DNA of 64,000 nt from Planctomycetota bacterium (GCA_965223845.1 CBDCXR010000004.1:1440001-1504000); one strand, 5' to 3'; counted from the stretch's first letter, positions 9,322 to 40,400 are shown. The notes: generated by a model from the sequence alone, not told the origin. Translations and numbers: made by a program.

Positions 9322-9373
9322 GACGGCTCGTCGGTCCGCGACCCGCGAAGCGGCGTCGATGGAAGCCCCGACC

Positions 9374-11219: not shown

Positions 11220-11221
11220 AA

Positions 11222-11363: not shown

Positions 11364-12713
11364 ATGAAACGACCGTCCTTCACCCTCGAGGTTGCCGCGG
11401 CGGCGGTCGCGATCTTCGCGTACGCCGCCCCCCTCACCGCCGACGACGGCATCGACCTCGTCACCCTTCCGGAACGCGCGAGCGTTCAACTGACGATCTA
11501 CAACTCCGCCGATTTGACCCTCGTTCGTGACGTGCGTCGGCTCACGCTTCGGCGGGGACTCAATCGACTGTCGTTCGAGTGGGCCGGGACACTCATCGAC
11601 CCGACATCGCTACAACTGCGCGCCGTCAGCGACCCGACCGCCGTGGAGCTCGTCGAGGTCGCCTATCCTCCCGGTCTCAACACGAAGGCAGTCTGGACCG
11701 TCCAGTCGGAGGTCGAGGGCGAAGTCCCGGTCGAGATTACTTTCTTTACCTCCGGTGTGAGCTGGCGGGCGTTCTACATGGGAACGCTCTCGCCGGACGA
11801 GCGAACGATGCGCCTTCAAAACTACGTGCGGGTACAGAATCAGTCCGGCGAGGAGTACGCCGACGCCGTAACGCGGCTCATCGTCGGAAAGATCCATCTC
11901 CTCGACGAAATCGCTGCTCTCGCTCGGCGGAACGAACCGTACGGTCGACCCGGCGTTCCGGGTGCGCCGCAATCGGGTGTCGACGGTAAGCGGCGCGTCA
12001 TGATGCAGCGTGCCTCCAGATCCCTCGATCTCGCGTCGGCCAAGGCCAAGCAGATCGTGAAGGAGGGCCTCTCCGAGTACTTCCTCTACACGATCGAAGG
12101 AACGGAGACGATTCCGAACGGATGGGCCAAGCGACTGCCCTCGTTCGCCGTCGACGAGGTTCCCGTTGTCAATCTCTACCGCTACGAAGAGGAACGCTTC
12201 GGCCAGAGCGTCGTACGTTTCATTCTGTTCGCGAACGACGACGCGCACCGTCTGGGTGAGACGCCCCTCCCGGGAGGCAACGTCTCGATGTACCGGGCGG
12301 TCGACGACGCGGGGCACCTCTCGTATGTCGGTGCGACGACGATCCAGTACATCCCGGTCGAGCAAAAAGCCGAGCTCGGCTTCGGTGCCGCCCAGGACGT
12401 CCTCGTCACGCCGAAGCAGATCTCGATCGAGTACGAAAACTTCGAGTTTCATTCGAACGGTAACATCCGCGGCTTTGACGAAGAGCAAACCTGGGAGGTT
12501 ACGGTAAAGAATCGCCGGGCGATCCCGATTCGCGTCGAAGTGACGCGAAACTTCCGTCACCAGTCTCACACGCTCACGAATACGGATGTCGCCGCGGGCG
12601 AGTTCGAGAAGATTGATCTCGATACCGCCCGCTACACGTTCGAGATCGCGCCGGGCGCCGAACGGCGATTTGGTTACACCGTGCGGTATCGCGAAGGATC
12701 TCGCGCGAACTGA
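11364..12713 (+). CDS. Exported DUF4139/DUF4140-family protein (paralog A)
   Basis: Signal peptide; VQLTIYNSADLTLVRDVR, SWRAFY, VQNQSGEEY, PLPGGNV; GGAG RBS before ATG 11364. Confidence 0.8.
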   Translation: MKRPSFTLEVAAAAVAIFAYAAPLTADDGIDLVTLPERASVQLTIYNSADLTLVRDVRRLTLRRGLNRLSFEWAGTLIDPTSLQLRAVSDPTAVELVEVAYPPGLNTKAVWTVQSEVEGEVPVEITFFTSGVSWRAFYMGTLSPDERTMRLQNYVRVQNQSGEEYADAVTRLIVGKIHLLDEIAALARRNEPYGRPGVPGAPQSGVDGKRRVMMQRASRSLDLASAKAKQIVKEGLSEYFLYTIEGTETIPNGWAKRLPSFAVDEVPVVNLYRYEEERFGQSVVRFILFANDDAHRLGETPLPGGNVSMYRAVDDAGHLSYVGATTIQYIPVEQKAELGFGAAQDVLVTPKQISIEYENFEFHSNGNIRGFDEEQTWEVTVKNRRAIPIRVEVTRNFRHQSHTLTNTDVAAGEFEKIDLDTARYTFEIAPGAERRFGYTVRYREGSRAN

Positions 12714-20147: not shown

Positions 20148-23100
20148 ATGGCATCACGCTGCATGCGGAGCCGATGTCGTGCGCGCGGAGTCCGTGTGCG
20201 CACGTCTCGGGTGCGACGATCGATCCCCGTACGGGGGAGACGGGGGCCATCCCGCGGGGAAGTCGCGAAGCTTGTTTTCGCGGGTCTTGTCGCCGGTTGC
20301 TTCGTGCTCGCTCCCGAGCGCGAAGTGCGTGCGCAGGACCGCGAGGCGACGCTTCGCTTCAACACCGCCGGCCGGCTCTACCGGCAGGAGAACTGGGCGG
20401 AAGCGCGGGTCGCGTTCGACGAGTTTCTCACCAAGTTCGGCCGTCACGAGAAGGCCGGAGAAGCGCGATTCGCTCGCGGCTACTGTCATCTCCGCCTCGA
20501 GCGGTACGCCGACGCCGTGCGCGACTTCGATTCGGCGGTGCGGGCACCGAACGCGTCGGGGTCGGCTTGGTTCGCGGACGCGTACTTCTACGCGGGGGAG
20601 GCCCGGGACGCGCTCGCTGCGAGCGGAGACGCCGATTCGGCCCGGCGCGCAGCGTTGCTGCGGGCGGCGGCGAAGAGCTATGGCGAGGCCGCCGCCGTTT
20701 GGGATCGGGTGAATTCGTCCGACTCGCGCGAGCGAGCTCGGGTGACGAGCCGGCGCGCGAGCGCGCTCGCCGCGCAGGGGGAGGCGCTCTATCACGCCGG
20801 CGACATCGCGCGGGCCCGGGAGACTCTGAAACCGTTTCTCGACGACGTCCGTGCGGGCGGTCGCCCCGCGCGATCGGCGGTTGGAGACGCGCAGGGGCGC
20901 GCTCTCTACTTCTTGGCCCTCGCCGAGTACTCGGGCGCGCGCGGGACGGAGCGGCCGAATTACACCGTCGCTCTTGCGGCGCTGAGTGTGCTGACCGAGG
21001 CCGGTCGCGAGCGGACGCCACTTTGGGAGGAGGCGGCCTTTCTCGCGGCGCAGATTCACGCGCTTGCGGGCGATCGTGACCGCGCACTCGCACTCTACGG
21101 CCGTGTTGTCGAGCGCAGGGGGCCGCGAGCCGAAGAGGCTGGCTATCGCCTCGCTCTCACTCGCTACGACTCGGGCACGCGAACGGATCTCCAGGCGGCG
21201 GCGAAGAGACTCTCCGAGTTTCGGCAGCGCTCGCCGGACCATCCGCTCGCGATCGAGGCACTCCACTTCGAAGGCTTGGCGCTGTTTCGTCTTCAGCGGT
21301 TCGAGGAAGCGGCCGAGCGTCTTTCCGATCTCGTCTCCGACGGGGCGACTCCGAAGGCGATCCGCGCGTCGGCGGGCTTGACACTCGGGCAGGCGCTTCT
21401 CCTCGCGCGGAAGGCGGATCCCGCGCGGGCGGAAAAAGTGCTCGATCGAGCGGCTCGGGACGCTCCGCCCGGCTCGAAAGAGCACGCTCAGATTTCCTTC
21501 TGGCGCGGGGAAGCACTGCTCGCCGTGAACGACGTCGATTCGGCGCGAGCCGCAGCGAGGGTGCTCGGTGCCGTCGCTGCTTCGGCTCGAACGGTCTCGC
21601 CCCGCATCGCCGAGGAGGCCTTGTTCAAGCAGGCGGAAGCGGCGTACCGCGCGGGCGAACACGCCGAGTGCGCGGCGCTAGGAGAGCGCTACCGGCGTGC
21701 GTATCCGCGCGCTCGCGCGCGGTTCTACGTCGAGTCGCTGAAGCTGTCTGGCCAGAACGCACTCTACGCGCCAGAGGATGCACTCGCCGATTCTGTCCGC
21801 GCCGTCGCCGCCGAGCATTACGAGGAGGCCGCGGCGCTCATCGACGATCCGGCCCAGGCGGCCGAGCTCCGGTATTTCGCGGGCATAGCACACTACCGCG
21901 CCGGAAAGTTCACTCAGGCGGCCGAGACGTTGGCCGGCGTCGATCGCGCGCGCGCGGATCTCGAACGAGAACCGGCAGCGTTCGCTGAGCTCGGCTTCTA
22001 CCTCGCGGATTCGCTCGCTCAAATCCCGCGCCGGTCGCCGCCGAGTCCGGAGGACGTCGCGCGTGCGGAAACCGCCGCGAAGCGATTCGAGGATTACCTT
22101 CGCGTGCCGAATCGGCAGCATGCCGAAACCGCACGGGTGCAGCAGGGCCTCCTCTACGAAGAGCTCGGGCAGATCGATCGGGCGCGCGATGCGTATCGGC
22201 GATTTCTCGCCGACCACCCGCGCAGCGAACGGGCGGCGACGATCCGCTTCGCTCTCGCCGACGCGCACCTAGCGCTCGAGGAGTTCGAGCGCGCTGCGGA
22301 AGCCTACCGCGTCGCCGCCGAGAGCGGCGGCGAGCCGGCGCTGCGCGCCCGCGCGTATCTCCAAGCCGCGACTCTCGAGCGGCGTCTTTCGCGCGGAACC
22401 GAGGCGCTCGCGCTGATCGAGCGGGCGTCGGCGCTCGCGCGCGACCTCGGACGAGTCGCGGGGGACGGACTGCGCGCTCGGATCGCGTTCGACCGAGCAT
22501 CGACGCTGCTCGACCTCGGACGCGACGCCGACGCAAAGACCGCCTACGCGCGCTACTTGAAAGAGTACGCCGGCGGCGAGCACGAATCCGAGTGCCGCGT
22601 GCAGCTCGGCTATCTCCACGTCGAGGCCGGCGACGGAGACGAGGCGATGCGCGTTGTCGAGCCGCTCGTGCGCGGACCTAAATCGGATGAACGCCGCCCC
22701 GACGCTCTCTATGTTCGTGCCTGGGCACTGAGTGACGCTGCGGCGGCGAGCGGCGACCCAAAGGTCGCGACCGCACTCGATCGACGCCGGGAGGCGGACT
22801 ATCAAACGATTCTTCGCGATCATCCCAGAGCGAAGATCGCGAGCGAGGCGCGGCTCGAGCTGGCTCAGCTCTTCTTCAACCGCGGCGAGTGGGACGTCGC
22901 GAAGCGCGAGTTTGGCCGCGTTGTCGAAGCGTTCGAGTCGGAGGACGCGACGCCGCGCCCCGATCTCCACCTTCAGGGCCAGCTCGGCCTCGCGTTCGTT
23001 CACTTTCAGACCGAGGACTATTCTTCGGCGCGTTCGCTGTTCGATCGCGTCGCCGGAGCGGCCGAAGACGACGCGGAGCTGCTCGTCCGCGCGACGTTCT

Positions 23101-23690
23101 ACGCGGGCCGCTCGTGGATGCTCAGCCGCGGGGTCCGGCAGGCGCGGCGCCGCTTCGAGCGTGTCGTCGGGGAGCTCAAGGAGAGCGCCGGCGAGCTCCT
23201 CGAGGAAGCGCTCCTCCGGCTCGGCGAGTGCTGTCACCGCGTCGAGGACTACACGGCGGCGGCCAAAACGTACCGGCGGCAGCTCGACGAGATCCCGGAC
23301 GGCCGGCGACGCCACGAAGCGCGCTTCGGGCTCGGACTCGCGTACCAGTTCCTCGATCGCCCGGATGATGCCGTCGAGCTCTTCACGGAAGTCACCCGCG
23401 CGACCACCGCGCCGATCGCCGCGCGGGCGCAGTATCACATCGGTGAGTGCTACATGGACGGCGAGAAGCACCGCGAAGCTGCGCGGGCGTTTCTGGCGGT
23501 AGTAGCGAGTTTCGACTTCGAAGGCGACTACCGTCCGTGGCTCCGCCGCGCACTTCTCGCCGCCGGAATCGCCTACGCCGCGGCGGGTGACTCCGCCGCG
23601 GCGGAAACACAGTGGAAGGAACTCGTCGCGCGCTTCCCGGGCTCGGACGAAGCAGCGGCGGCTAAGACAAGACTGGAGGAGGTGAAGTGA
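20148..23690 (+). CDS. Large exported tetratricopeptide-repeat protein with CpoB/YbgF-like repeats
   Basis: Hydrophobic signal (LVFAGLVAGCFVLA); many TPR-like units (ARFARGYC, AYRRFLADHPRSERA, WKELVARFPGSDEA); start uncertain. Confidence 0.85.
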   Translation: MASRCMRSRCRARGVRVRTSRVRRSIPVRGRRGPSRGEVAKLVFAGLVAGCFVLAPEREVRAQDREATLRFNTAGRLYRQENWAEARVAFDEFLTKFGRHEKAGEARFARGYCHLRLERYADAVRDFDSAVRAPNASGSAWFADAYFYAGEARDALAASGDADSARRAALLRAAAKSYGEAAAVWDRVNSSDSRERARVTSRRASALAAQGEALYHAGDIARARETLKPFLDDVRAGGRPARSAVGDAQGRALYFLALAEYSGARGTERPNYTVALAALSVLTEAGRERTPLWEEAAFLAAQIHALAGDRDRALALYGRVVERRGPRAEEAGYRLALTRYDSGTRTDLQAAAKRLSEFRQRSPDHPLAIEALHFEGLALFRLQRFEEAAERLSDLVSDGATPKAIRASAGLTLGQALLLARKADPARAEKVLDRAARDAPPGSKEHAQISFWRGEALLAVNDVDSARAAARVLGAVAASARTVSPRIAEEALFKQAEAAYRAGEHAECAALGERYRRAYPRARARFYVESLKLSGQNALYAPEDALADSVRAVAAEHYEEAAALIDDPAQAAELRYFAGIAHYRAGKFTQAAETLAGVDRARADLEREPAAFAELGFYLADSLAQIPRRSPPSPEDVARAETAAKRFEDYLRVPNRQHAETARVQQGLLYEELGQIDRARDAYRRFLADHPRSERAATIRFALADAHLALEEFERAAEAYRVAAESGGEPALRARAYLQAATLERRLSRGTEALALIERASALARDLGRVAGDGLRARIAFDRASTLLDLGRDADAKTAYARYLKEYAGGEHESECRVQLGYLHVEAGDGDEAMRVVEPLVRGPKSDERRPDALYVRAWALSDAAAASGDPKVATALDRRREADYQTILRDHPRAKIASEARLELAQLFFNRGEWDVAKREFGRVVEAFESEDATPRPDLHLQGQLGLAFVHFQTEDYSSARSLFDRVAGAAEDDAELLVRATFYAGRSWMLSRGVRQARRRFERVVGELKESAGELLEEALLRLGECCHRVEDYTAAAKTYRRQLDEIPDGRRRHEARFGLGLAYQFLDRPDDAVELFTEVTRATTAPIAARAQYHIGECYMDGEKHREAARAFLAVVASFDFEGDYRPWLRRALLAAGIAYAAAGDSAAAETQWKELVARFPGSDEAAAAKTRLEEVK

Positions 23691-24523
23691 TGATTCGATC
23701 CCAGAAGCAGTCGAAGCGAATGTCGAGCGGTGCGCGAACGGCCATCGTCGCCACCTCACTCGTTCTCGTCGCGGCGCTCGGGCTGCAGGTCCGCGCCCAA
23801 GTCGAGACTGAATCGGCACCGGCCGAGAGCGCCGCTTCTGCCACTCGAGTTCCTCCGCCTCCGCCAGCGGGAACAATCCTCCCGACCGAGGAACACCCCG
23901 AGTCGTATCTCGAATTCGCACTCGCGGGCGGCTACCTGATGATTCCGATCGCGCTCCTCAGCGTCGTATGGCTGACGTTTCTGATCGAGCGGCTCACGGC
24001 GCTCCGCCGCGCGCGGGTGTTTCCGCGGGCGCTCGCGTCCGATCTCTCGATGCTCCAGCCGGGCAAGACGGACGGAGACGCGGTCGAGCGCATCCTCACC
24101 GAGCGGGATTCGAGTTGCGCGCGGATCGTTCGGACGGCAGCGAAGCACCTCGGTTCCGATCGCGAGAACATCGAGTTCTACGTCAACGATGCCGCGCAGC
24201 GCGAGGTCCACAAGCTGCGCCGATTCATCGGCGTCTTCGCCGTGATCGCCTCGGTGGCGCCGCTACTCGGACTCCTCGGGACGGTGACGGGAATGATTCA
24301 GGCGTTCCGCGAGGTGGCGCTCGAAGGACTCGGCTCCGGTCAAGCGCTCGCGCCGGGAATCTACCAGGCACTCGTCACGACCGCCGCGGGACTCATCGTC
24401 GCGATTCCTGCGCTCGTGACCTACCACTGGCTTCACTCGCGCATCGATAACTACCTTCATTCGATCAACGCGCTCGTCGTCGATTTCGTCGAAGCCCGCG
24501 GGCTCAGAGGAGCGGCGTCATGA
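23687..24523 (+). CDS. MotA/TolQ/ExbB proton channel protein
   Basis: GGYLMIPI, APLLGLLGTVTGMIQAF, GIYQALVTTAAGLIVAIP; start overlaps the TPR stop. Confidence 0.95.
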   Translation: MMIRSQKQSKRMSSGARTAIVATSLVLVAALGLQVRAQVETESAPAESAASATRVPPPPPAGTILPTEEHPESYLEFALAGGYLMIPIALLSVVWLTFLIERLTALRRARVFPRALASDLSMLQPGKTDGDAVERILTERDSSCARIVRTAAKHLGSDRENIEFYVNDAAQREVHKLRRFIGVFAVIASVAPLLGLLGTVTGMIQAFREVALEGLGSGQALAPGIYQALVTTAAGLIVAIPALVTYHWLHSRIDNYLHSINALVVDFVEARGLRGAAS

Positions 24524-24942
24524 TTCACATCGAATCGCAGCGCGAGCGACTTCAGCTCAATATGGCGCCGATGGTCGACATGATTTTCCTCCTCGTGATC
24601 TTCTTCCTCACGACGACGTCCTTCACGGACAAGGAGCGTGAGCAGGACGTCTTGCTGCCGGCGAATCGAACGCCGGGGAGTCTCAGCCGGAACGCCGACA
24701 ATCACCTCATCGTCAACGTCCTCGCTGAAGGCGGCGTACGAGTCTACGGCGACGACGTCGACCGAACCGAGCTCGCGGCGATCATTCGCGAGCGACGCGA
24801 GCGTGCGCGGCGCCCGCTGAAGGTGCAGGTGCGCGCTGATCGCCGCGCGGCTTACGGTCACGTCGCTCTCGCGCTCGAGTCGATCGAGCGGGGCGGTGTC
24901 GCCCGGCCGTACATCGTGACGAAGCTCGTCGAGCTCGAATGA
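24520..24942 (+). CDS. ExbD/TolR biopolymer transport protein
   Basis: LNMAPMVDMIFLLVIFF with the conserved Asp, and VRADRRAAYGHV; ATGA overlap with the ExbB gene. Confidence 0.95.
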   Translation: MIHIESQRERLQLNMAPMVDMIFLLVIFFLTTTSFTDKEREQDVLLPANRTPGSLSRNADNHLIVNVLAEGGVRVYGDDVDRTELAAIIRERRERARRPLKVQVRADRRAAYGHVALALESIERGGVARPYIVTKLVELE

Positions 24943-25035
24943 GCGGCGAGCGCGGCCGCGTGGAGCGCCGCGGTCGCCGTAGTGCACTCCGTCGGGCGAA
25001 CGGGAAGACGTCGAGCGAGAAGACGAGGGACGAAC

Positions 25036-28000
25036 ATGGGCTCAGATCGAAAAAGTACGCAGCGAAGCAGGAACGGGTCGCGAATTCGGTGGGGGTGGCT
25101 CGGCATCGCCGCGATCGCCGTCGCGGTGGCGCTCCCGTTTATCGTCCACCGAACGATGTCGTACTACACCGATGGTGACCGACTGCGGGAGGACGCGGAC
25201 CTCGCCGAAGATGCACTGCGATCGATCCTCTGGGAACCGTCGCGTCCCCTCGAGCCGCTCCTCAGCTCACCCCAATCCGACGAGTACGAACCGCGGGTGA
25301 GTCCATTCGGCGACGAGTTGATCTTCACTCGCCGGCGTCCGGGCCAGAACGCCGATCTTTGGTCGAGCGTGCGGCGACGCGGACGCTGGATGGAGCCGCG
25401 TCCAGTCGACGGCGTGAACACCGATGCGGACGAGCTCGGCGCCGCGTTTAGCGCCGACGGCGAACGCCTCTACTTCTACTCGAACCGCGAGGGTGGACTC
25501 GGCGGCTACGACATCTGGTCCAGCCGGCGAGAAGATGACGGAAGCTGGGGGCCTGCGACCAATCTCGGTCCCGCGGTCAACTCACCGTGGAACGAGATGA
25601 GCCCGGCTCCCGATGATCGCCGCCGGCGTCTCTTCTTTACGAGCGACCGCCGTGCGGGCGCCGAAACCTCGCCGCCGTGGACCGCGACGATTCGCGCGCG
25701 CCTGAACGCCGCGGAATACGACATCTACGTCGCCAGGCGTCCGAACGAGTCGACAGCGGACGGCGGAGGTGGAAACTCCGCCGATGAAACGGATGCGAGC
25801 GAACTCGCGTTCGCGCCGGCCGAGCCGTTCTCCGCGCTCAACCGTCCCGGCTCCGCCGAAGGCGCCGTCGCCGTGTCGCCGCTCGACGATTTTCTCTACT
25901 TCTCGAGCAATCGACACGGCGGAGAGGGCGGATTCGACCTCTACCGCGTGCGGATCAACCGCGAAGAGCCCGGTCCGATCGAGTCTCTGGGGCCGCAGGT
26001 GAACACGACGTCGGACGAGATCGATCCCGCGCTCGCCACCGGCGGCTACGAGCTCTACTTCGCGCGGGCCGTCGACGGTCAGGAGGATCTCTTCGTCTCG
26101 CTCTCCCGCGAGGTCTACATGGACCGAGAGAGCGGAGATCCGTACTGGAGCATCGGTGCGGTGCTGCGATTCCTCTCTGAGCTCTTGCGTCTAATTCCTT
26201 TCGATGTTCTCGCGTTTCTCGTTTGTCTCCTCCTCGCCGCGCTACTCTACGCGCTCGTTCGAAAGCTCCTCCGGCGACCGAGTCTTCTTCTGCGTGCGCT
26301 CTTGGTTGCGGTCCTTCTGCACCTGTGCACGGCGCTTTGGATGCACCGACACGATGTCGAGCGCATGCTCTTCGACGGTGTCGCCGATGAGGAAGAGTTC
26401 GACGCGTTCGAGGTCACGGTCGAGGGGCTGCCCGAAGAGTCGGTCGGAGTCGCGATCCGCGAAGCGACGGCGAGTCCTCTCGAATCGGAGGAGCACGTCG
26501 CGCTCGCACTCTCTCGCGAACGTCCGGAGGAAGCGGACCGTGAAGCGGCCGAAGGAAGCACTCCGGAACCGCTCGCTCCGGAGTTCACCGCAGGCGAAGT
26601 GCGAGATCTTCCCCCGCCCGAATTCGCGGCGACTGCGCTCGCGGACGCCGAGCTTCCCGACGCGCCGCTTCGCGGTTCCGAACCTCGGAGTGACATCGCC
26701 GCCGCGGCCGAAGACGACGCGGCGCCCGAGATCGCGGCGCAATCGGTCACGCCAGAAGAGTCGGCGGCGCCGGCGTCTGTCACTCGACTCGAGTCGCCGA
26801 GCCGCCGGTCGGTACGGGATCGAACGTCGGGTGAGGGGGTGGGGGAAGAGTTCGCGCCCCTTGCGGTCGAAGTGAACATCGCCGCTCGTTCGGCCCCCGA
26901 AGGCGCGCCGCGCGCTACCGTTCCGCGTGCCTCGCCGTCCGTAGCTACCCGGGCGACCGCTCCGCCCGACGTGTCCACCGCAACCGCACCGCCTCGCCGA
27001 AGCCGAAGCGAAGCTCCGTCGCCGCCTTCCCCGATCGCGAGCGTCGCCCCCCGGCCGGGCCCCGCTCCGACAGCGAGCGCGCCGCGACTCGAGTCCCGTC
27101 GACGCGGCGTCCGGCGAGACGCGGAGGACGAGCGACCGCGGGCGCTCGATTCGCTGGCTCCCCGCCTCGAGCGCCGCGAGGACGCGCGACAGCGCTTGCC
27201 CCGGGCCGCGGACTTGCCGCGCGTCGCGCGAAGGCTCGACGAACGGTCGAGAGCGGAAGCCGCGTCGCAGGCTGCCTCCGCGCTCGAGCGCGCGCCTTCG
27301 AGGCGCGATCGCGTAGAGCTCGCGGTGCCCTCTTCGCCGAGCACGGTTCGCACGGAGCCCGCACCGACGCTCACCCGCGAAACCCTCGCTCGTACGGAAG
27401 AAGACACGCTTCCCAGCACCCCGAAGGGGAGTGAGGTCGCCGCTCGCGACGAGGGAGCGACCGTCGCCAGCGCGAGAGCGGCGGAGTCGAATCCGTCAAG
27501 TCAGGTGAAACTTCGGCGTGATCGTCGACGCCGGGCCTCGCGGGACCCGCACCGGGAACTGCGCAGCCTCGGTGTGCGCGCGCGAACGGCCACCGCCCCT
27601 CTCGATCGGTCGAAGCCGGCACCGGCGACGTCCCGCGAAGAGCTCGCGGCCAAGGTGGAGCTGCCGAAGCCGAGTGCGAGCGTCGCGACTCCGATCGTCA
27701 CTCGCATCCGACCCGCCGAACCGGAGCGAGAGCGTCCGCAGATCTACGAGCTGAGAGCGAAGGATCGGCGCGAAACGGCACTCGCTCGCGGGGGTGGGAG
27801 TGAACGGACCGAGCGCGCAGTGGAGGACGGGCTCGATTGGCTCGTTCGACACCAATCGCCCGATGGCCGGTGGCGACTCGATCGCTACACCGATCATCTG
27901 CCTTCGACGTCTCTCCGCGATCTTCAGCACCCCGGATGGAACGGCCGCGGGCGGACGTCGAGTCGCGGCGGGCGCGGAAAGGCTGCGAAGGGCGACGCCG

Positions 28001-28887
28001 CAGCGACCGGACTCGCTCTCCTCGCCTTTCTCGGTCACGGCGATTCGCACCTCGAAGTCGGGCCGCGTCGAGAGGCCGTCGCACGCGGACTAGCATGGCT
28101 GCTCCGCGTCCAGCGCCCGAACGGCGACCTCCGCGGCGGCGGCAACCTCTACGTCCACGGAATCGCCGCGTTCGCGCTCTGCGAGGCGTACGCATTCACG
28201 CGCGACCCGAATCTTCGCGATCCGGCGCAGCGAGCGATTGACTTTACGGTTGCGAGTCAGCATCCCGGGAAGGGAGGGTGGCGTTACGAGCCACACCCCC
28301 GGAGCGGAGAGGTCGACACGAGCGTCTTCGGTTGGATGCTGATGGCACTGAAGAGCGGACGGCTCGGTGGCCTCGACGTCGATGACGACTGCTTGCGCCG
28401 AGGGGCGGCGTATCTCGACAGTGTGCGCTTTGGGCGCGCGGGAGGACGCTATCGCTATCAACCGGGAAGGACGCGATCATCCCTCGCGATGACGGCTCAG
28501 GGGTATTTCTCGCATCTCATGCTCGCCGACACGCTGCTCGAGGGCGAGAGCCGATCGGCCGAAGCGATCCTTCGCGCCGAGAGGGAATCCGCCGAATTTC
28601 TCGTCCAGAACCTGCCGCGCGCAGAGGACATGGAAGGCGTCAACTTCTACTACTGGTACTACGCGACGCTCGCGATGTTCCAAACCGGCGGTGAACCGTG
28701 GCGCGTTTGGAACGAAAACCTGACGCGCGTACTCCTCGAGCACCAGGTTGGGGACGAGCACGGGTCGGCGCACGGGAGTTGGGATCCTCGCGGCTACCGC
28801 GCGGAGATCGGCGGGCGCGTGTACTCGACGGCGCTCAGTATTCTCTGTCTGGAGGTCTACTACCGGTACGCTCGACTCGAGCGCTGA
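25036..28887 (+). CDS. Multidomain membrane protein: TM, PD40 (TolB-like) propeller, 2 TM, low-complexity linker, prenyltransferase/squalene-cyclase-like barrel
   Basis: Five PD40-like repeats (e.g. AFSADGERLYFYSNREGGLGGYDIW); TM pair around RKLLRRP; Pro/Ala/Glu/Arg-rich linker; QW-like motifs LVRHQSPDGRW, LLRVQRPNG, SQHPGKGGW; NFYYWYYATLAMF; GGRVYSTA. Confidence 0.85.
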   Translation: MGSDRKSTQRSRNGSRIRWGWLGIAAIAVAVALPFIVHRTMSYYTDGDRLREDADLAEDALRSILWEPSRPLEPLLSSPQSDEYEPRVSPFGDELIFTRRRPGQNADLWSSVRRRGRWMEPRPVDGVNTDADELGAAFSADGERLYFYSNREGGLGGYDIWSSRREDDGSWGPATNLGPAVNSPWNEMSPAPDDRRRRLFFTSDRRAGAETSPPWTATIRARLNAAEYDIYVARRPNESTADGGGGNSADETDASELAFAPAEPFSALNRPGSAEGAVAVSPLDDFLYFSSNRHGGEGGFDLYRVRINREEPGPIESLGPQVNTTSDEIDPALATGGYELYFARAVDGQEDLFVSLSREVYMDRESGDPYWSIGAVLRFLSELLRLIPFDVLAFLVCLLLAALLYALVRKLLRRPSLLLRALLVAVLLHLCTALWMHRHDVERMLFDGVADEEEFDAFEVTVEGLPEESVGVAIREATASPLESEEHVALALSRERPEEADREAAEGSTPEPLAPEFTAGEVRDLPPPEFAATALADAELPDAPLRGSEPRSDIAAAAEDDAAPEIAAQSVTPEESAAPASVTRLESPSRRSVRDRTSGEGVGEEFAPLAVEVNIAARSAPEGAPRATVPRASPSVATRATAPPDVSTATAPPRRSRSEAPSPPSPIASVAPRPGPAPTASAPRLESRRRGVRRDAEDERPRALDSLAPRLERREDARQRLPRAADLPRVARRLDERSRAEAASQAASALERAPSRRDRVELAVPSSPSTVRTEPAPTLTRETLARTEEDTLPSTPKGSEVAARDEGATVASARAAESNPSSQVKLRRDRRRRASRDPHRELRSLGVRARTATAPLDRSKPAPATSREELAAKVELPKPSASVATPIVTRIRPAEPERERPQIYELRAKDRRETALARGGGSERTERAVEDGLDWLVRHQSPDGRWRLDRYTDHLPSTSLRDLQHPGWNGRGRTSSRGGRGKAAKGDAAATGLALLAFLGHGDSHLEVGPRREAVARGLAWLLRVQRPNGDLRGGGNLYVHGIAAFALCEAYAFTRDPNLRDPAQRAIDFTVASQHPGKGGWRYEPHPRSGEVDTSVFGWMLMALKSGRLGGLDVDDDCLRRGAAYLDSVRFGRAGGRYRYQPGRTRSSLAMTAQGYFSHLMLADTLLEGESRSAEAILRAERESAEFLVQNLPRAEDMEGVNFYYWYYATLAMFQTGGEPWRVWNENLTRVLLEHQVGDEHGSAHGSWDPRGYRAEIGGRVYSTALSILCLEVYYRYARLER

Positions 28888-31919: not shown

Positions 31920-34487
31920 ATGATGGATCTTGCTATCGAACTCCGGGCTCGGCGGATCGAAGTCGTGCGCCTCGGACTCTTCTGCGGGCTCACTTTCGCG
32001 TTCGGAGCCGGAGGCGACCTCCAGAGTGCGGATCTCTTCGCCGAGCTCCCCGCAACTGGGCAGCGGGTTTGGATCGGGCCGGCGTTCTGGGCCAATCGGC
32101 TTCAAGATTGGCAACTGAGCTCCGGGCGCATCGAGTGCGTGGAGGGACGGCAGGCTAAGCCGATGCGGACGGTGCACGTTCTTACGCATCGGGTGGGCGA
32201 CCAGAGCGGCTCGCTGCGACTGGAGGTCGTCACGGGGGAAGTCGAAGCGTCGAATGCCCGTGCCGGCACGGCGGCGGCGGGATTCCTCATCGGCGCTGGA
32301 GGGAACAGTCTCGACTACCGAGCCGCCGCGCTCGTTCACCACAGTCCGGGTCCGGGGGCCGGAGTCTTTTGCGGGGTCGATCGCGCGGGGCGTACCTTCA
32401 TTCGCGACCACTCCGCACCATCGCCGCCGCCGGATCGCACCGCCGCGCGTGCGCTAGCGTCGGTGCGTCTCGTACTCGATCTCGAACCCGCCGGAGATGC
32501 CTATCGCGTGACACTCCGCGGTCTCGATTCGGCGAGCGGAGAACCACTCAGCGAAACGACGGCAACGATTGAGGCTGCGCGCGCGGTGGGTGGGATCGCC
32601 CTCGTTTCCCATCCGGGCGAAGAACGAGCGCGCTTTTGGTTCCGCGGCCTCGAGGTGAGCGGTACGAAGCTCGACATCGACGCCTCCCGCACGGCCGGTC
32701 CGGTTCTCTCGACTCAGTACACTCTCTCGCGCGGGATCCTCAAGCTCACCGCGCAGCTCATGCCGATCGGACTCGCGCAGGACCGGAGCGTCACGCTCGA
32801 AGTGAACGCAGGCGACGGCTGGAAGAACATCGCCACGGCGGAAGTCATCGCGCCCGGCTGGACCGCGACGTTCCGCCTGCCGGGGTGGGACGACAGCCGC
32901 GATCTCCCGTACCGAGTGACGCACGAAGGACGTTCGTGGGGCGGAACGATCCGGCGCGACCCGGTGGACAAGCGGACGATCGTCGTCGCCGGCTTCACCG
33001 GGAATCACAACTGTCGCCGGGGAGTCGACCGGCGCGGTCCCTACTACTGGCTGCGCGGCTTGTGGTTTCCGCACGACGATCTCGTCGCGAATCTCGTTCG
33101 GCACGAACCCGACGTCCTCTTCTTCAGCGGTGATCAGGTTTACGAGGGGGCGAGTCCGACGGGCGTCGACCGCGCGAACGTCTATCTCGATTATCTCTAT
33201 AAGTGGTACCTCTGGTGCTGGGCGTTCCGCGATCTTTCGCGAGACATTCCGACGGTGACGATCCCCGACGACCACGACGTCTACCAAGGGAATCTCTGGG
33301 GCGAAGGTGGACGCAAGACCGACAAGGACGACAAGGGAGGCTACGTCTGGCCCGCACCATTCGTCCGCATGGTCGAGCGCACGCAGACGGCGAACCTTCC
33401 CGATCCGTACGATCCGACCCCGATCGCGCAGGAGATCGGAGTCTACTACACCGGAATGACGTACGGACGGATCAGCTTCGCGGTGCTCGAGGACCGGAAG
33501 TTTAAGAGCGGTTGCTCGGGACGCGTGCCGCCGTCGGGAAGTCGTCGCGCCGACCACATCGTCGACGAGGAGTTTGACGTCATGAAGGCGGACGTGCCGG
33601 GAGTTCAGCTCCTCGGACGGCGTCAGCTCGACTTTCTCGCAGACTGGGCGGCCGACTGGCGCGGCGCCGACATGAAGGTCGCGCTTTCCCAGACCGTGTT
33701 CGGTGGTATGGCCACGCACCACGGCGGAAACTTGCAGTACCTGCGCGCCGACCTCGACTCGAACGGCTGGCCGCAGTCCGGTCGGAGACGAGCGCTCGAG
33801 GAGCTACGGCGCGGGTTCGCGTTCCATCTCGCGGGCGATCAACACCTCGCGACGATCGTTCACCACGGAATCGACGATTGGGAGGACGCCGGGTGGTCGT
33901 TTGCGGTGCCGTCGATCGCGAACTTCTATCCGCGCAAGTGGGAGCCGAAGACGGCCGGGGAGAACCGCGAGCCCGGAGCGCCGGAGTACACCGGTCGCCA
34001 TCGTGACGGACTCATGAACCGAGTCACCGTGTTCGGCGCGTCGAATCCGGGTCGATCGACGGGGCGCGAGCCGAAAGATCTCCACGATAGCATGCCCGGG
34101 TACGGGATCCTGCGGCTCGACAAGGAGACGCGAACCATCCGCGTCGAGTGCTGGCCGCGCTACGCCGTTCCCGGCCGCGATGCGCAGTACGAGGGTTGGC
34201 CGCGCGTAGTGACTCAGCAGTCGAACTACGGTCGCGCCGCCCGCGCTTATTTGCCGCGGCTGGAGATCTCCGGCATGGAGGATCCGGTGGTGCAGGTCAT
34301 CGCGGAAGCGACGGGCGAGGTGGTGTACACGATTCGTATCCGCGGTCGCGAGTTTCACCCCTGGGTGTTCGCGCCGGGACGCTACCGCGTCGCCGTCGGC
34401 GAGCCCGGGACGCGCCGATGGAAATCACTCCCCGATCTCGAGGCCGCTTCGCGCGAGTCGGCCGGCGAGCTGCGAGTCGATCTGTGA
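31920..34487 (+). CDS. PhoD-like alkaline phosphatase D family protein with extra N- and C-terminal domains
   Basis: FSGDQVYE, IPDDHDVYQGN, LEDRKFK, DSNGWP, LAGDQH metallophosphoesterase motifs; start uncertain. Confidence 0.82.
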   Translation: MMDLAIELRARRIEVVRLGLFCGLTFAFGAGGDLQSADLFAELPATGQRVWIGPAFWANRLQDWQLSSGRIECVEGRQAKPMRTVHVLTHRVGDQSGSLRLEVVTGEVEASNARAGTAAAGFLIGAGGNSLDYRAAALVHHSPGPGAGVFCGVDRAGRTFIRDHSAPSPPPDRTAARALASVRLVLDLEPAGDAYRVTLRGLDSASGEPLSETTATIEAARAVGGIALVSHPGEERARFWFRGLEVSGTKLDIDASRTAGPVLSTQYTLSRGILKLTAQLMPIGLAQDRSVTLEVNAGDGWKNIATAEVIAPGWTATFRLPGWDDSRDLPYRVTHEGRSWGGTIRRDPVDKRTIVVAGFTGNHNCRRGVDRRGPYYWLRGLWFPHDDLVANLVRHEPDVLFFSGDQVYEGASPTGVDRANVYLDYLYKWYLWCWAFRDLSRDIPTVTIPDDHDVYQGNLWGEGGRKTDKDDKGGYVWPAPFVRMVERTQTANLPDPYDPTPIAQEIGVYYTGMTYGRISFAVLEDRKFKSGCSGRVPPSGSRRADHIVDEEFDVMKADVPGVQLLGRRQLDFLADWAADWRGADMKVALSQTVFGGMATHHGGNLQYLRADLDSNGWPQSGRRRALEELRRGFAFHLAGDQHLATIVHHGIDDWEDAGWSFAVPSIANFYPRKWEPKTAGENREPGAPEYTGRHRDGLMNRVTVFGASNPGRSTGREPKDLHDSMPGYGILRLDKETRTIRVECWPRYAVPGRDAQYEGWPRVVTQQSNYGRAARAYLPRLEISGMEDPVVQVIAEATGEVVYTIRIRGREFHPWVFAPGRYRVAVGEPGTRRWKSLPDLEAASRESAGELRVDL

Positions 34488-37400
34488 AGCGCTGCGTCAC
34501 ACCGGCGAGTGCGACGAACCGCACGCTTCTCTGGAGCGCCGCGCTGTGCTCGGCCGCGATCCTCGCGCTGCCGCTGCGAGCCGCCACGTTCGAAGCGGAC
34601 GCGGACGGGAAAGGATCCGAGTCGAGGAAGATCGTCCTCATCGCCGGTCCGATCACGGGTCACCCGAAAGATACGCACGAGTACGAGAAGAGCGTCGTCT
34701 TGCTCAAGCATCTGCTCGATCGTGCGCCGAATCTGCGCGGTCTCCTGGTCGAGGCGCACTTCGGAGGCTGGCCGCGAGACGAGTCTACCCTCGATGACGC
34801 CGACTCGATCGTCTTGATCTCCGACGGAGGAGACCGGAACGAAGAGAGCCACCCCCTCTACGTCGGCAATCGAATGGAGACCATCGCACGGCAGATGAAT
34901 CGGGGCTGCGGCTTCGTGAACTTTCACTGGACGACTTTCCATCCCGCGCGCGAGCACGACCGGATCACCGAGTGGGTCGGCGGGTACTTCGACTACGAGA
35001 CCGGACCCGCGCCGCGCAAGTGGTACTCGGCGATCGAGACGAAGGAGTGGCCGGTCGCGCTGCCGTCTCCGCGTCACCCCATCGCGCGGGGGGTTCGACC
35101 GTTCCGAGTCCGCGAGGAGTTCTACTACCGCATCCGTTTTCGCGACGTGGATCCACGGCTCGTTCCGCTCGCCGCGGTGGCCGATGGCCGCGAGGGGGTC
35201 GTGGGGTGGGCCGTCGAACGAGACGACGGCGGCCGCGGATTCGGTTTCACCGGGGGACACTTCTACGCGAACTGGTGGAACACCGACTTTCGCCGATTCA
35301 TCCTGAACGCGATCGTGTGGTCGAGCGGCGCCGAAGTGCCGCCGGGCGGGGTCGAGTCGAACTTGGAAGAACGATTCCGAACCCTCGTCGTGACGGGTCA
35401 TAACCATCCCGCGCACGACTGGCGATCGGTCACGGAAGCACTCATCGGAGTCATCGAGCAAGATCCTCGTGCGATCGTCCATGTCACGGAGAATCCCGAG
35501 CGCCTCGGCGAATCTGGCCTCGAGGCGTACCGAACCCTCGTCTTCAATTATTCGAATTGGGAGCGTCCGGGCCTCAGCGACCGCGCGAAGAAGGGACTCG
35601 TGGACTACCTCTCGTCGGGCGGGGGATTGACGGTAGTTCACTTCGCGAACGGCGCGTTTCATTACTCGCTTCCCCGAAAGGATTCCGATTGGGAGGAGTA
35701 CCGCACTCGCATCGTGCGGCGCGTCTGGGTTCACGGCGAGGGAAAGAGCGGACACGATCCGTACGGTCCTTTTCGCGTCGAGATCGCGGACGTCGAGCAC
35801 GAGGTGACGCGAGGCCTCGAATCGTTCGACACCGTGGACGAGCTGTACTTTCGCCAGGAGGGCCCCCTTCCCGTTGTTCCGCTCGCAAACGCGCGATCCA
35901 AAGTGACCGGGAACGTCGAGCCACTCGCGTGGACCTACGACTACGGACGTGGGCGAGTGTTTCAGACTCTGCTCGGACATGCGGCGGAGTCGGTTCGGCG
36001 CGCCGGCGCGCTCATCCGCCGCGGGACCGTCTGGTCGGCGCGGTCTTCTCCGCTCGGATTCGATCCACCGCCCGAGATCGTCGAGGGCATGCTCTTTCGC
36101 GCGGGAAGTCCGTGGACTGCGGCGGAATCGCGAGCGCGTGCCGAGGCGAACGAAGCGAAAGGCGAGGAGCCGGTGCGCGAGAAAGCGGACGAGCCCGCAG
36201 AAGACGGTTCTGAGTCGGCCGGTGGAGACAAGAGCGCGTCCGAGGGAGTGTTGCCGCCGAACCCCGGGCTCGACGGTGGTCTCGGTGGGCACTGGGGAAT
36301 CAAGAACGATGGCGACTGGAAAGACGGGCGTTGGAATCAAATGGACGTCGGCTCGCTCGTGAGCTCGTCGCTTCGCACGCCCGCCGGCCTCGCTCTCAAG
36401 TCTCTGGCGCTTCGCCTCGGCGACGACGCATCCGCTGCGGCGGCCTTCGATACGGCCGATCTCGCGTATCGGGTTGCGTGGACGGGCGAGTTCATTTCGT
36501 TCGACCCGCAGCGGTTTGGGGTGATCGCGATGCCGAGGATCGCGGGAACGATCGAGCTCATCGGCGCCGAAGGGAAGGCGTGGGGAGATGCCGCCACTCG
36601 CTATCGTCGACTCTACCGAGGTGCGCGGCCCGTGCTCGAGTACGAGGTGAACGGGATTCGCATCCGCGACGCGCCGTGGGCGGATCACCTCGGAGAGCTG
36701 CGAGCATTCACGCGAGACTTCGCTGTCGCCCCGCGCGATCGGAGTCTCGCGACCGTTTTGTGTACGGGAACGGCAGCCGCGAAACTGAACTCGAGGCACT
36801 TTCAGCGCGCCCTCGTCCCCGCGAAGGGCGATCACGTCAACGCGATCGCACTCCTCGGGGCGGAAGCTGCGGAGGCGTGGCTTCGGGTCGACGGACCGAA
36901 AGTGATTCTCGAGTTCGGTCCAGCGACGAAGCCGACTTCGTGTCGCGTCGTTCTCGCTCGCGTGCCGCGTGCCGGCGTCGACGAGTTTTTCCGATCCGCC
37001 GCGGAACTCTCTCGCCCGTCTCCCTCGACGGCGATCGCGGCGGCCATGATGCCGTCGCGCCCTCGCTGGAAGACGCTCAAGACGTCAGGGCGGCTCGGTG
37101 CGGGCTCGGGTGCCTACGTCATCGATACGATCGATCTCCCACTCGAGAATCCCTACCGCGCGCTCTTCTTCCTGAGCGGTCACGATTTCTTCCGCGACGG
37201 TAGAGCGGCCGTGAGCACTCTTCACGGCGACGTGTGGATCGCGAGCGGGCTCGACGCGGATCTCGGAGAGATCGAGTGGCGGCGTTTCGCAACCGGCCTC
37301 TACCAGCCGCTCGGACTGAAGATCGTTCGCGACGAAGTGTACGTGCGCGGTCGCGATCAGATCACTCGACTCTCCGATCGCAACGGCGACGGTGAAGCGG

Positions 37401-40400
37401 ATTTGTACGAGGCGTTTTCCCACACGACGAAGACGACCGCGAACGGACACGATTACGTCTCCTCTCTCGAGACCGATGCGAGCGGGAACTTCTACTACGT
37501 GAGCCCGCGTGGTCTTCACCGCGTGGCGCCGGACGGATCGAGTGAACAAGTCATCGCCACCGGTTGGCGGAACCCGAACGGGCTTTCCGTCAGCGCGGAG
37601 GGCGTGATCACCGTCGCCCCGCAGGAGGGCGAGTGGACTCCGGCATCGCAGATCGTCGAAGTAAAGCTCGGCGGCTACTACGGCTATCCGGGGCCGCGAC
37701 CCGACGTGTCGAGGCCGCGCGGATACGATCTTCCGCTCTGCTATCTGCCGCGCGGCGTGGACAACTCGACCGGCGGTCAGGTGTGGGTCGAACGAGTTGA
37801 CTGGGGGCCGCTCTCCGGACAACTGCTCAGCTTTTCGTTCGGAACGAGCTCGATGCAGCTCATTCTTCGCGACCGCGTCGGCGATCAGCCGCAAGGCGCA
37901 GTCGTCAAGCTCGACGGACGATTCCGATCCGGCGCGATGCGTGGCCGGTTTCATCCACGGACGGGCGATCTCTACGTCAGTGGCATGCAGGGCTGGGTAA
38001 CGAACGCGGTCGAAGACGGTTGCCTTGAGCGTGTCCGCTACACTGGGGCGCCACTCGCGCTTCCGACCGACTACCGCGTGCACGAGAACGGCCTCTGGCT
38101 TCGCTTCAGCGAGCCGCTCGACGCCGCGACCGCTGGAGATGCGGGGAGCTACCGGCTCGAAGCGTGGAATTACGAGTACGCGAAGACCTACGGTTCGAAG
38201 GAGTACTCCGCCCGTCACCCGAAGCGAGAGGGACACGATCCCGTGTCGCTTCGTTCGGTCCGCGTATTCGACGGCGGTCGAGAGATCTTCCTCGAGGTTC
38301 CCGCGCTCGAACCCGTCGATCAGCTTTCGGTGAGCGCGTTTTTGGATGCGGCAGACGGTCGGGATGCTTCGATCGATCTCGTCGCGACGGTCCACGCGCT
38401 CCATCCCCCGTTCGAGCTCGAGCCGGCTCCGGCGCCGGGGGCGACCGGCGCGCGGCCGACCGCGGAAGCAGGTTCGCGAGACGACGCTCGCTCGGGGCTC
38501 GAGCTCACACTCAGACCGCTCGCGGGTGGAGAACCGGATCATCGCCGAGCTCGCCGCGCCGCGCTCTTCGTCGGCGCGGGAGAGTCGCCGAGCCCGTTCA
38601 TCGAGCCGGGCCCATTCCTCGCCGTGTTTCGCGGGGAGCTCGTTCTTCCGCAACGAGACAAAGTTCGCTTTCGTGTCCGGGGGAGTGGGCGCGCGCAGCT
38701 CGAGCTCGATGGCCGCGTCGTGTTCGAGTCGGAGAGCGACGAAAGCTCTCGCCTCGCCGAAGGCTGGAGTCCTCCCGTCCGGGTGCGCGCCGGACGGACA
38801 GCGATCGTCCTCTCCTACCGATCGCCGGACCGAGGCGACGCGACGCTTCGCCTCTACTGGGAGGGGCGGGAGTTTCGGGAAGAGACCGTGTCGGCGGAGT
38901 TTCTGTCCCATTCGCCTTCGCTCGACCTCCGACGCGCCGAGCGAGTAAGGCGCGGACGCGAGCTCGTCGCGCGTCACCGCTGCCTCGACTGTCACCGGGC
39001 GGACGCCGCCGAGCTTCGCCGGGGAATGCCCGAGCTCTCGTTCGGCGGGCCGACGCTCGACGGCATCGGGTCGCGGCTGCGTGAGGAATGGCTCGCGCGA
39101 TGGATCGAGCATCCCGCGCGCGAGCGGCCCGGCGCGACGATGCCCCGCGTGCTCGCGCCTCGCGGCGTCCTCGATGACGTTTCTCCGACGGCGACCGTGT
39201 CGATCGATCGCCGAGCGCTCGATATCGCGGCGTACCTTTCGACTCTCCGTGCCGAGGTGACTCGACGCCACGGGGGCGCTCCGCCGCGAGCGAGCGCCCG
39301 CGCGGGCGGCGATCTCTTCGCGCGTCTCGGGTGCTTCGCTTGTCACACGTTCGACTCGGACACCGCCGACGGCGAGCTCACGCCGCTCACTCACGTCGCG
39401 GCTAAGTGGCAGCCCGGTGCACTCCGAGAGTATCTCCTCGAACCGCACAGTCACTTTCCCGCGACTCGCATGCCGGACTTCGATCTGTCGGGCGCCGAAG
39501 CGGATCAGCTCGCGGCGTTTCTCCTCGCACGAACGGCAGCTTCCCCGGTCGGCGACCGGCAGCCACCGATCCGCGTTCCGGCGTCGGCCCTTCGCGGGGA
39601 CCGCGAACGAGGTCGGTCCCTCGCCGAAGCGAACGGATGCGCGAACTGTCACGAAATCCCTGGTGTCGCGCCGCAACCGGCCGCACCGTTCGAGAAGATC
39701 GCACGCCTCGATTGGTCGAAGCGAGGCTGCGCGGCGCCGCCGTCGACTCGGCGGTCGGCCGCACCTCGGCTCGAGCTCGGAGATCGCGATCGACGTGCGA
39801 TCGCGCAGTTTGGGCGCCATGCGCACAGCCTCTTTCGCCGGTCGATGGCGGAGGCGGCGGAGCGCACCGTGCGGGGGTTCGCTTGCACCGCGTGTCACGC
39901 GCGCGACGGCGAAGCGGCGCGCTGGGACGAGCGTGAAGCGGCGTTCGAGCATCTACGGATTCCGCGAGAGTCGCGGATCTCCGTCCAGACGCGACCTGCG
40001 CTCTCGTTTTTCGGGGAGCAGCTCCGCGTCCAGTGGATCGCGCGGCTCCTCGGGGGAGATCTCGGGTACCGTCTTCGCCCGTGGCTCGACGCGCGGATGC
40101 CGTCGTTCGGTCCGCTTGCTGCGAGCCTCGCGGACGGATTCGCTCACGCCGACGGATTCTCGGCTCGTCCGCGTCCGCAGCGGTCCGCGACATCGGCCGC
40201 GCGAGACTCCGCCCGAGAGGGCAAGACGCTCCTTGGCTCGGCGAGCGGACTCAGCTGCACTTCGTGCCATCCCGTTGGCTCGAGGCCGGCGGAGAACGAT
40301 CTTCACTTCGGAGTCGTGAACCTCGCGCACAGCGCGGAGCGCCTTCGTCCGGAGTTCTTCCGGCGATGGATGCTGAATCCGCAGCGCATCGCACCGGGGA

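Follow-up and report, generated by a model that had tools for sequence, protein, structure and literature searches.

A conserved TPR-ExbB-ExbD cassette with a propeller- and toroid-bearing membrane protein: a candidate proton-motive-force-driven envelope system of Planctomycetota

What may an ExbB-ExbD motor drive when the membrane protein encoded next to it resembles neither TonB nor TolA in its C-terminal part? Ton and Tol are the two textbook routes by which energy reaches the Gram-negative outer membrane, which has none of its own. The question is raised by a locus of Planctomycetota bacterium (GCA_965223845.1), located in a stretch of 64,000 nucleotides (CBDCXR010000004.1, hereafter C4, positions 1440001-1504000), which we call “the window” at its full length and whose positions are counted from its first letter. 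At 20148-28887 of its plus strand, four open reading frames (ORFs) follow each other: a TPR protein (g1), an ExbB-like protein (g2), an ExbD-like protein (g3) and a membrane protein of 1301 aa (g4). We consider it probable that these four genes represent a self-contained envelope system of the Ton/Tol kind, driven by the proton motive force (PMF), in which g4 is a previously undescribed transducer.

The arrangement of the locus is compact. The initial annotation of this DNA, made from the sequence alone, described a tight operon with overlapping stop and start codons for the first three genes, and both overlaps can be read directly. The ATG of g1 (20148-23690) is preceded at 8 nt by AAGGAG, and its TGA stop (23688-23690) meets two possible starts of g2 (23687-24523), GTG 23687 and ATG 23690, in a TGATG/GTGA junction. 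With either start g1 and g2 overlap; ATG 23690 is the probable one. The sequence GGAGGAGG lies just upstream of the g2 start, and Shine-Dalgarno-like runs precede both this junction and the next one, an ATGA in which g2 and g3 (24520-24942) overlap by 4 nt. The longest frame of g4 (24982-28887) opens with GTG 24982, from which its residues are numbered here. The most likely start is ATG 25036, which has GAGGGA 7 nt upstream and at which an identical database copy (P0005, 1283 aa) begins; the protein would then count 1283 aa, and the gap between g3 and g4 is 39-93 nt depending on the start. The spacer itself (24943-25035) is G+C-rich, with a GCGGCCGC core and complementary runs on both sides, and it might fold and tune g4 translation.

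The same order of genes is found far outside this genome. Among 8000 scored candidates, 234 relatives of g4 were found at E <= 1e-3, nearly all unnamed or called “PD40 domain-containing” and coming from metagenome-assembled genomes of Planctomycetota. One genome per species was then scanned, with 410 stretches confirmed and 79 loci kept, which belong to Phycisphaerae, Planctomycetia, Verrucomicrobiota (Opitutales) and Sumerlaeota; their neighbouring genes were called by tblastn with the window proteins. The propeller domain of g4 is present in 49 of the 79 loci. Where these reach far enough upstream, ExbD is located directly upstream in 44/44 (loci with at least 700 nt of upstream DNA), ExbB upstream in 43/43 (at least 1.5 kb) and a TPR homologue in 40/41 (at least 5 kb), the exception L011 having a 1071-aa ORF at this place. 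Synteny of the cassette is near-absolute, and the lack of operon conservation which would have refuted the initial reading is not observed.

The two motor genes retain what an ExbBD motor is built from. g2 matches MotA_ExbB at 1.7e-32 and, by hydropathy, has a signal-like N-terminal segment and a periplasmic extension ahead of its first transmembrane helix (TM1); g3 matches ExbD at 8.3e-21 and carries Asp20 in its transmembrane (TM) helix. When 50 ExbBs adjoining a g4 homologue were aligned with E. coli ExbB and TolQ, the pore threonines Thr199 and Thr232 (the positions of E. coli T148/T181) and Pro241 of TM3 proved to be present in the window and in 50/50 linked ExbBs. Ser92 of TM1, at a position which contacts TonB/TolA in E. 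coli, is kept in 49 of the 50, and Asp20 of ExbD is invariant (46/46 rows). All these hallmarks of such a motor, from the two Pfam domains and the paired pore threonines to the proline of TM3 and the aspartate in the membrane, are thus in place, and the intact Thr motifs and Asp reported initially for the window are a property of the whole group.

Phylogeny also separates this motor from its relatives. In a tree of 60 ExbB sequences (quick method, SH-aLRT only, one long ORF trimmed to its last 280 residues), the 50 g4-linked ExbBs form one clade (SH-aLRT 97), apart from the TonB-linked ExbBs of the same genome (one at 5.07 Mb and two at 6.63 Mb); a grouping with canonical TonB systems, which the initial annotation named as grounds against its reading, is thus not seen. 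Also outside this clade are the genome's secretin-linked ExbB (2.74 Mb), the second ExbB of L005, one ExbB of L057, and ExbB and TolQ of E. coli. One TonB-linked MotA_ExbB match (C4:6627754-6628092) belongs to a reading frame that spans 672 aa, or 631 aa when counted from its first start codon; this is much longer than a usual ExbB and suggests an N-terminal fusion. The secretin-linked ExbB belongs to the locus L080 (C4:2736000-2750000, minus strand), encoding a TPR protein (351 aa), ExbB (268 aa), two ExbDs (171 and 198 aa) and then a 906-aa protein with TPR, STN and secretin parts, with a 1003-aa ORF without Pfam family upstream; in the tree its ExbB joins those of L062 and L063, whose genes precede short toroid-headed ones by about 3 kb.

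The partner of this motor is presumably g4. Judging from hydropathy and charge, it starts with a strongly basic cytoplasmic N-terminus followed by TM1 as a signal anchor (residues 39-57; 25096-25152), a periplasmic domain (about 61-395), and a hairpin (403-455; 26188-26346) composed of TM2 (405-427), the short basic loop RKLLRRPS and TM3 (434-455); then come an acidic stretch, a tether of 466 residues and the C-terminal domain (921-1301). The TM1/TM2-TM3 pattern recurs among the homologues, the N-terminal hydrophobic segment being present in most of 121 rows. The initial annotation gave this protein a single anchor; an anchor is indeed present, but hydropathy gives three hydrophobic segments, TM1 and then the TM2-TM3 hairpin.

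The hairpin was aligned for 120 homologues (P0004 and P0006-P0124, the identical P0005 being omitted). His447 of TM3 (codon 26320-26322) is kept in 117 of them and in all 48 copies cut from syntenic genome loci; Ser occurs at -4 from this His (S-x3-H) in 101/120, and position 439, where the window has Ala, is Cys in 113/120. The TM3 His would correspond in position to TonB His20 and TolA His22, whose SHLS motif begins with S-x3-H. According to the text of 10.1101/2024.10.08.617233, TonB Ser16 and His20 contact TM1 of ExbB, and the Ser and His of SHLS touch TM1 of ExbB/TolQ in cryo-electron microscopy structures. The tether (26434-27741) is a disordered stretch in which Ala, Arg, Pro, Glu and Ser abound. 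It measures 466 aa in the window when taken from TM3 to the head; in 119 homologues its median length is 450 residues, with a range of 252-1217. A dedicated ExbB/ExbD motor and a probable partner with a His-bearing TM helix and a long linker, as anticipated initially, are what the locus encodes.

Directly behind TM3, g4 has a conserved strand, DAFEVTVEGLP (residues 474-484; 26401-26433), in which Val478 is kept in 99/120 homologues and which is a candidate “motor box”. We predicted the complex of two copies of ExbD(42-140) with g4(454-520), each entered as an alignment, together with three controls. The ipSAE values for the ExbD dimer and the g4 segment were 0.60, 0.67 and 0.64 (median 0.64), while the best of the three controls gave 0.22; at least 47% of contacts are common to the runs. 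The confident interface joins g4 474-484 with residues 119-123 and 128-135 of both ExbD copies. This model supports, although it does not prove, binding of the strand to the periplasmic ExbD dimer. A membrane-near motif of TolA is likewise predicted to bind TolR in the text of 10.1101/2024.10.08.617233.

Between TM1 and the hairpin, g4 carries a periplasmic PD40 beta-propeller (3.7e-16; residues 61-395; 25162-26166), which was modelled by AlphaFold2 (AF2) from a 35-row alignment with pLDDT 84.8 and pTM 0.86. In the VIA fold search its ranks 1-40 are occupied by glycoside hydrolases (GH) and related carbohydrate-active enzymes of the GH43/GH32/GH62/GH130 type (Z 17-21), families which we take to be five-bladed. 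TolB (1c5k) appears at rank 41 (Z 16.9, root-mean-square deviation (rmsd) 3.7, 211 residues), with the highest identity, 18%. Five PD40-like repeats are counted in the g4 sequence, and the propeller is predicted to be five-bladed. A search of this genome (91.7% complete) for TolB_N gave no match. The propeller is TolB-like in repeat type only: of the TolB label given to it initially, the PD40 repeats stand, while the predicted number of blades and the missing TolB N-domain speak against it.

At the other end of the tether is the head (residues 921-1301; 27742-28887), a single barrel of 381 aa with QW-like repeats. Its AF2 model, based on a 75-row alignment of the C-terminal domain, is an (alpha/alpha)6 toroid (pLDDT 90.3, pTM 0.92). 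The C-terminus of g4 matches SQHop_cyclase_C at 5.5e-6, exactly at the Pfam cut-off, and a PDB profile match to squalene-hopene cyclase (SHC, 1gsz) at 1.4e-17 runs via repeated QW-like hairpins. Among 48,161 chains in the VIA search, SHC 1gsz comes first (Z 24.6, rmsd 3.1, 287 residues), tied with the single-barrel cyclase 8paj (Z 24.6, rmsd 3.5, 293 residues); Foldseek with the head gave fold-level matches only (TM-score 0.5-0.6). A Pfam search of g4 detected no TonB_C (PF03544), TolA-type or vWA family match. The proposal that a terpenoid-cyclase-like barrel stands in place of a TonB/TolA C-terminal domain is upheld by the toroid model, by SHC as the best profile and fold match and by this absence of TonB_C. 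In a protein atlas there are many clusters of similar single toroids, which are commonest in Planctomycetota.

The first gene of the cassette encodes a scaffold of 1180 aa with an N-terminal Sec-type signal (TPR_16, 1.8e-35) and YbgF/BamD-type units. Its NCBIfam score for tol_pal_ybgF is 190 bits against a cut-off of 90.1, reached as 7 repeated stretches, and BamD gives 92.6 bits. The orthologues of about 1040-1100 aa occupy the same position and have ordinary Sec-type signal peptides. The identification of this protein with CpoB seems overstated, since it scores 44 bits against the CpoB cut-off of 383, is four to five times longer than CpoB and has a Sec signal. Its reading as a lipoprotein, suggested by VAGC in the signal, was also rejected, since the orthologue signals have no consistent Cys or lipobox.

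Variants of the cassette indicate which of its parts belong together. Thirty of the 79 loci have the head only, nine of these being cut at the 5' end. In the Sumerlaeota loci L008 and L017, TPR, ExbB and ExbD genes precede a protein with the hairpin and the head but without the propeller; a similar protein occurs in L051 from Verrucomicrobiota, with ExbB and a more distant TPR match upstream and no ExbD match. Since the Sumerlaeota copies keep the TPR-ExbB-ExbD-hairpin-head order without the propeller, one can suggest that the motor plus the toroid arm represent the core of the system. Seventeen head-only loci are short single-TM proteins of Planctomycetia whose TM helix reads S-x3-H in 17/17; by their sequences, these are TonB-like “orphans” with a toroid head. 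Yet another combination is found in L079 (7321-11613), where a 1431-aa ORF joins a BlaR1-like M56 module with an HExxH-type motif to the same toroid domain, which suggests that the toroid may serve as an outward-facing sensing or binding module.

The M56 family is met again in the flanks of the cassette. When flanking ORFs of 46 full-length loci and the window were clustered, a BlaR1-like M56 membrane protease was found directly upstream of the TPR gene in 28/46 loci and a BlaI/Penicillinase_R-type repressor upstream of the M56 gene in 17/46 (e.g. L001:150-3460), counts to be read with the fact that many loci end before this position. Apart from these two, the clustering yielded only the four genes of the cassette itself. 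A motif in the C-terminal half of the M56 sensor is conserved, and Pfam assigns this half to no family other than M56/M48. Inducible control of the cassette in Phycisphaerae is suggested by the location of this sensor and repressor upstream; both genes are missing from the window's clade.

In the genome studied here the cassette is one of several motor loci, with six ExbB, six ExbD, three TonB_C and five Plug matches in total. Canonical ExbB-ExbD-TonB_C sets with a TonB-dependent transporter (TBDT) are located at about 5.07 and 6.62-6.63 Mb, and therefore the cassette motor is not needed for canonical Ton systems. A second, diverged cassette at about 2.01 Mb (L081, C4:2008000-2022000, minus strand, 2971-11865 in the locus) encodes TPR (1169 aa), ExbB (335 aa), ExbD (137 aa) and a g4 paralogue (1310 aa), about 33-38% identical, and its junctions overlap; the 648-aa and 141-aa ORFs upstream of it have no Pfam match. 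Two cassettes in tandem are also present in L024. Short toroid-headed paralogues are encoded in this genome by a tandem pair (C4:3402641-3406212, 575 and 537 aa) and at C4:1087737-1088795, and the 537-aa member has S-A-V-V-H at residues 33-37.

The surroundings in the window are unrelated to the cassette: BipA/TypA lies upstream across a 458-nt gap and an M61 peptidase downstream in convergent orientation. A simple promoter and terminator scan at the cassette gave nothing above shuffles. None of the genome's Plug/TBDT matches and none of its OmpA/Pal-type matches falls within the window (C4:1440001-1504000), which agrees with the initial statement that Pal and a TonB-dependent receptor are absent from it. 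Elsewhere in the window there are very large ORFs at 34148-40570 (2140 aa), 44140-47475 (1111 aa) and 50940-56123 (1727 aa).

How could the four genes work as a self-contained PMF-driven system? We suppose that ExbB and ExbD would form the inner-membrane stator, presumably with the 5:2 stoichiometry of their family, and that g4 would be the force transducer. Anchored by TM1, it would expose the five-bladed PD40 propeller in the periplasm, re-enter the membrane with TM2 and leave it with TM3, the invariant His of which may dock on the rim of the ExbB ring. With its periplasmic domains the ExbD dimer would clasp the strand 474-484 just after TM3, and the motor action would be passed along the disordered tether of about 450 residues to the toroid head. 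The head may bind a target at the outer membrane or the wall, for which an isoprenoid lipid or a glycan is our guess; the lipid or hopanoid handling and the macromolecule uptake suggested initially are guesses as well. The propeller at the motor base and the secreted TPR protein would be accessory binding and scaffold parts, which resemble TolB and CpoB by their role rather than by common descent.

Perhaps this scheme can be developed further. The planctomycete periplasm is unusually large, and ExbBD may pull, via a tether fitting this enlarged periplasm, a toroid head whose target is an isoprenoid lipid of the outer membrane (e.g. a hopanoid) or a wall glycan, while the propeller and the TPR protein organise the pulling site. 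Such a machine, distinct and specific to the Planctomycetes-Verrucomicrobia-Chlamydiae (PVC) bacteria and inducible via BlaI/BlaR1 in Phycisphaerae, would remodel or hold the outer membrane where TolB is mostly undetected. Taken with all these details, this picture is tentative and rather unlikely to hold as a whole.

Several observations weigh against the transducer role of g4 and against its proposed contacts. The Trp of ExbB TM1 that contacts TonB/TolA (E. coli W38/W32) is Leu in 35/50 linked ExbBs, and the ExbB of the window has Leu96 at this position with Trp95 next to it; since the Trp is not kept, the interface of ExbB with its transducer, if any, is not identical to that of Ton and Tol. 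g4 of the window itself carries Ala443, not Ser, at -4 from His447. In the window's clade alone (window, L002, L005) Ala replaces both the Ser and the Cys of TM3, and ExbB of this clade (3/50) has Trp one position ahead of the usual Leu; these paired changes may be a small hint of contact, representing one evolutionary event at most. In the complex prediction, the g4 segment's own fold is uncertain (pLDDT 40-45), and the score may partly reflect likeness, because TonB-ExbD and TolA-TolR contacts are already solved or predicted. The same score mark was reached by 58/80 solved complexes and 2/110 mismatched pairs, calibration counts which are only rough because custom alignments were used. The ExbB tree, obtained by a quick method without bootstraps, has long outgroup branches and is therefore read for clade separation, not for deeper relations. 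As for the head, its fold shows no function; Z declines smoothly from 24.6 (SHC) to 20-23 (epimerases, GH76 and other toroids) with no gap. Finally, no outer-membrane barrel, Pal-like or lipoprotein gene recurs in the flanks of the 46 loci and the window.

One can ask whether the cassette is simply a planctomycete form of Tol-Pal, with TolQ and TolR represented by ExbB and ExbD, a fused TolA-TolB by g4 and a giant CpoB by g1. Such a system would stabilise and constrict the outer membrane of dividing cells, and the gene for its Pal equivalent would lie at another place in the genome. The cassette shares with Tol-Pal a motor with a His-helix transducer, encoded together with a PD40 propeller and a YbgF-type TPR protein which passes the tol_pal_ybgF cut-off, and TolQ (TIGR02796) and TolR (TIGR02801) are the top NCBIfam matches of g2 and g3. 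However, these matches remain far under their cut-offs, with 89.8 bits vs 221 for TolQ (ExbB, 71.9 bits, is also under its cut-off) and 46.6 bits vs 127.3 for TolR. Unlike in Tol-Pal, propeller and transducer are in one chain, the propeller has five predicted blades and no TolB N-domain, the head is not TolA domain III, and the cassette has no Pal, while none of the genome's three OmpA-family matches adjoins motor genes. A substitute is conceivable, given that TolB_N was not found in this genome and occurs in only 19/401 sampled genomes of the phylum (10/244 high-quality ones). The profile of the hairpin plus strand matches at least 58/401 sampled genomes of the phylum (44/244 high-quality; about one in seven), a lower bound since nine first-look candidates were scored per genome, and both other members of the window's family match it. 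Four of the genomes with TolB_N also carry the cassette, and for this reason it is not a simple Tol-Pal stand-in. A complementary distribution of the cassette and TolB was considered and rejected, because the two are missing together from most of the sampled genomes and coexist in four. The cassette is thus neither universal nor complementary to TolB, and it occurs in two copies per genome here and in L024. We consider the Tol-Pal explanation unlikely.

An uptake system of the Ton kind would have the head open an outer-membrane transporter or pore other than a classical TonB-dependent receptor, for import of nutrients or macromolecules. The cassette does share with TonB of the E. coli type the motor Pfam families, the Thr ring and the Asp, the S-x3-H logic, a flexible periplasmic linker and a membrane-near strand predicted to contact ExbD. 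The short TonB-like toroid forms occur as orphan genes, like TonB paralogues, and the M56 sensors and BlaI-like repressors suggest inducible expression, which is common among uptake systems. Unlike TonB, g4 has no TonB_C domain and no linked TBDT, and it crosses the membrane three times, with the last pass as its anchor. The ExbB of the cassette does not conserve the TM1 Trp and falls in a clade distinct from that genome's TonB-linked ExbBs, which belong to its own canonical sets. Flank clustering of the 46 loci revealed no TBDT, porin or other barrel gene as a conserved neighbour, and we regard uptake as quite unlikely. The other possibility is that g4 is chiefly an enzyme, a periplasmic membrane-bound terpenoid cyclase or prenyl-lipid processor, with ExbBD merely co-located or serving another protein. 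It draws on the (alpha/alpha)6 barrel, the QW-like repeats and the best profile and structural matches, common to the head and to SHC and class II terpenoid cyclases (1gsz, 8paj), and on an invariant head block D-T-S-V-x-G-W, which recalls the DDTA of the genome's true SHC (DIDDTA). But unlike the SHC didomain the head is one barrel on a periplasmic tether, and g4 scores far below the family cut-off for hopene_cyclase (TIGR01507; 24.2 bits vs 431). A DxDD string occurs in 5/75 head rows at differing places, the DVDD of the window being non-conserved, and the residue ahead of the invariant Asp is Gly in 62/75. These are string and column counts, since hhalign matches the head with the genome's own SHC in the QW region only. 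By sequence the head looks unlike a working class II cyclase; it resembles a non-catalytic SHC relative. An enzyme would also leave the near-absolute ExbBD synteny, the invariant His and the predicted ExbD contact unexplained, so this explanation is extremely unlikely. Very unlikely too is a role in surface motility or secretion as part of an Agl-Glt-like or type IX-like apparatus, where TolQR-like motors act with large TPR and PorE-like propeller proteins. Large TPR proteins do accompany the Agl-Glt motor, and the g4 propeller gives 118 bits for CHU_0125 and 107 for PorE, g1 57 for PorW/SprE; yet these are far under the cut-offs of 620, 600 and 250, and flank clustering of the 46 loci found no other Glt or type IX component conserved beside the cassette.

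A self-contained system with g4 as transducer thus remains our preferred reading, and its closest parallel is found in PVC bacteria themselves. In the main text of Williams-Jones et al. (2025, Mol Biol Evol, PMC12204202), vWA-headed “motor-driven force transducers” are predicted in these bacteria behind TPR-tolQ-tolR genes, in Planctomycetes and Verrucomicrobia, where the cassette occurs too. As described there, they share with g4 a TonB/TolA-like TM helix in which the His is conserved, a disordered linker bearing a box close to the motor (in g4 by prediction only) and a non-TonB globular head, and the order of genes is also common: TPR, tolQ-like, one or more tolR-like, transducer. The differences, within the same text, concern the head ((alpha/alpha)6 toroid in g4, vWA in those proteins), the ExbD genes (one in the cassette, a heterologous pair in the vWA systems), the linker (about 450 aa in the g4 family, about 100 described for vWA transducers) and the TM1-propeller-TM2 module that g4 adds ahead of the His helix. 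The main text of PMC12204202 contains 0 mentions of PD40 or prenyl, and its supplementary tables might list more families; in the full-text literature searched, subscription journals and supplements excluded, no description of a toroid-headed or PD40-bearing transducer was found. Since PMC12204202 already presents transducers with neither TonB nor TolA heads behind TPR-tolQ-tolR, the cassette should not be called a “third type” of ExbBD-powered machine, as was first proposed. From that text, the toroid is a further head type of the kind already described with vWA heads.

The cassette thereby adds a second widespread head type for TonB/TolA-like anchors, the terpenoid-cyclase-like toroid, beyond the vWA heads. 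It also adds an architecture that PMC12204202 does not describe in its main text, with a propeller between two membrane passes at the motor base, and tethers of 250-1200 residues. It occurs in Planctomycetota, Verrucomicrobiota and Sumerlaeota, often in two copies, and the same head is also carried by plain TonB-like anchors. In a phylum where TolB is rarely detected among the sampled genomes, the ligand of this head would tell how these bacteria couple their two membranes.

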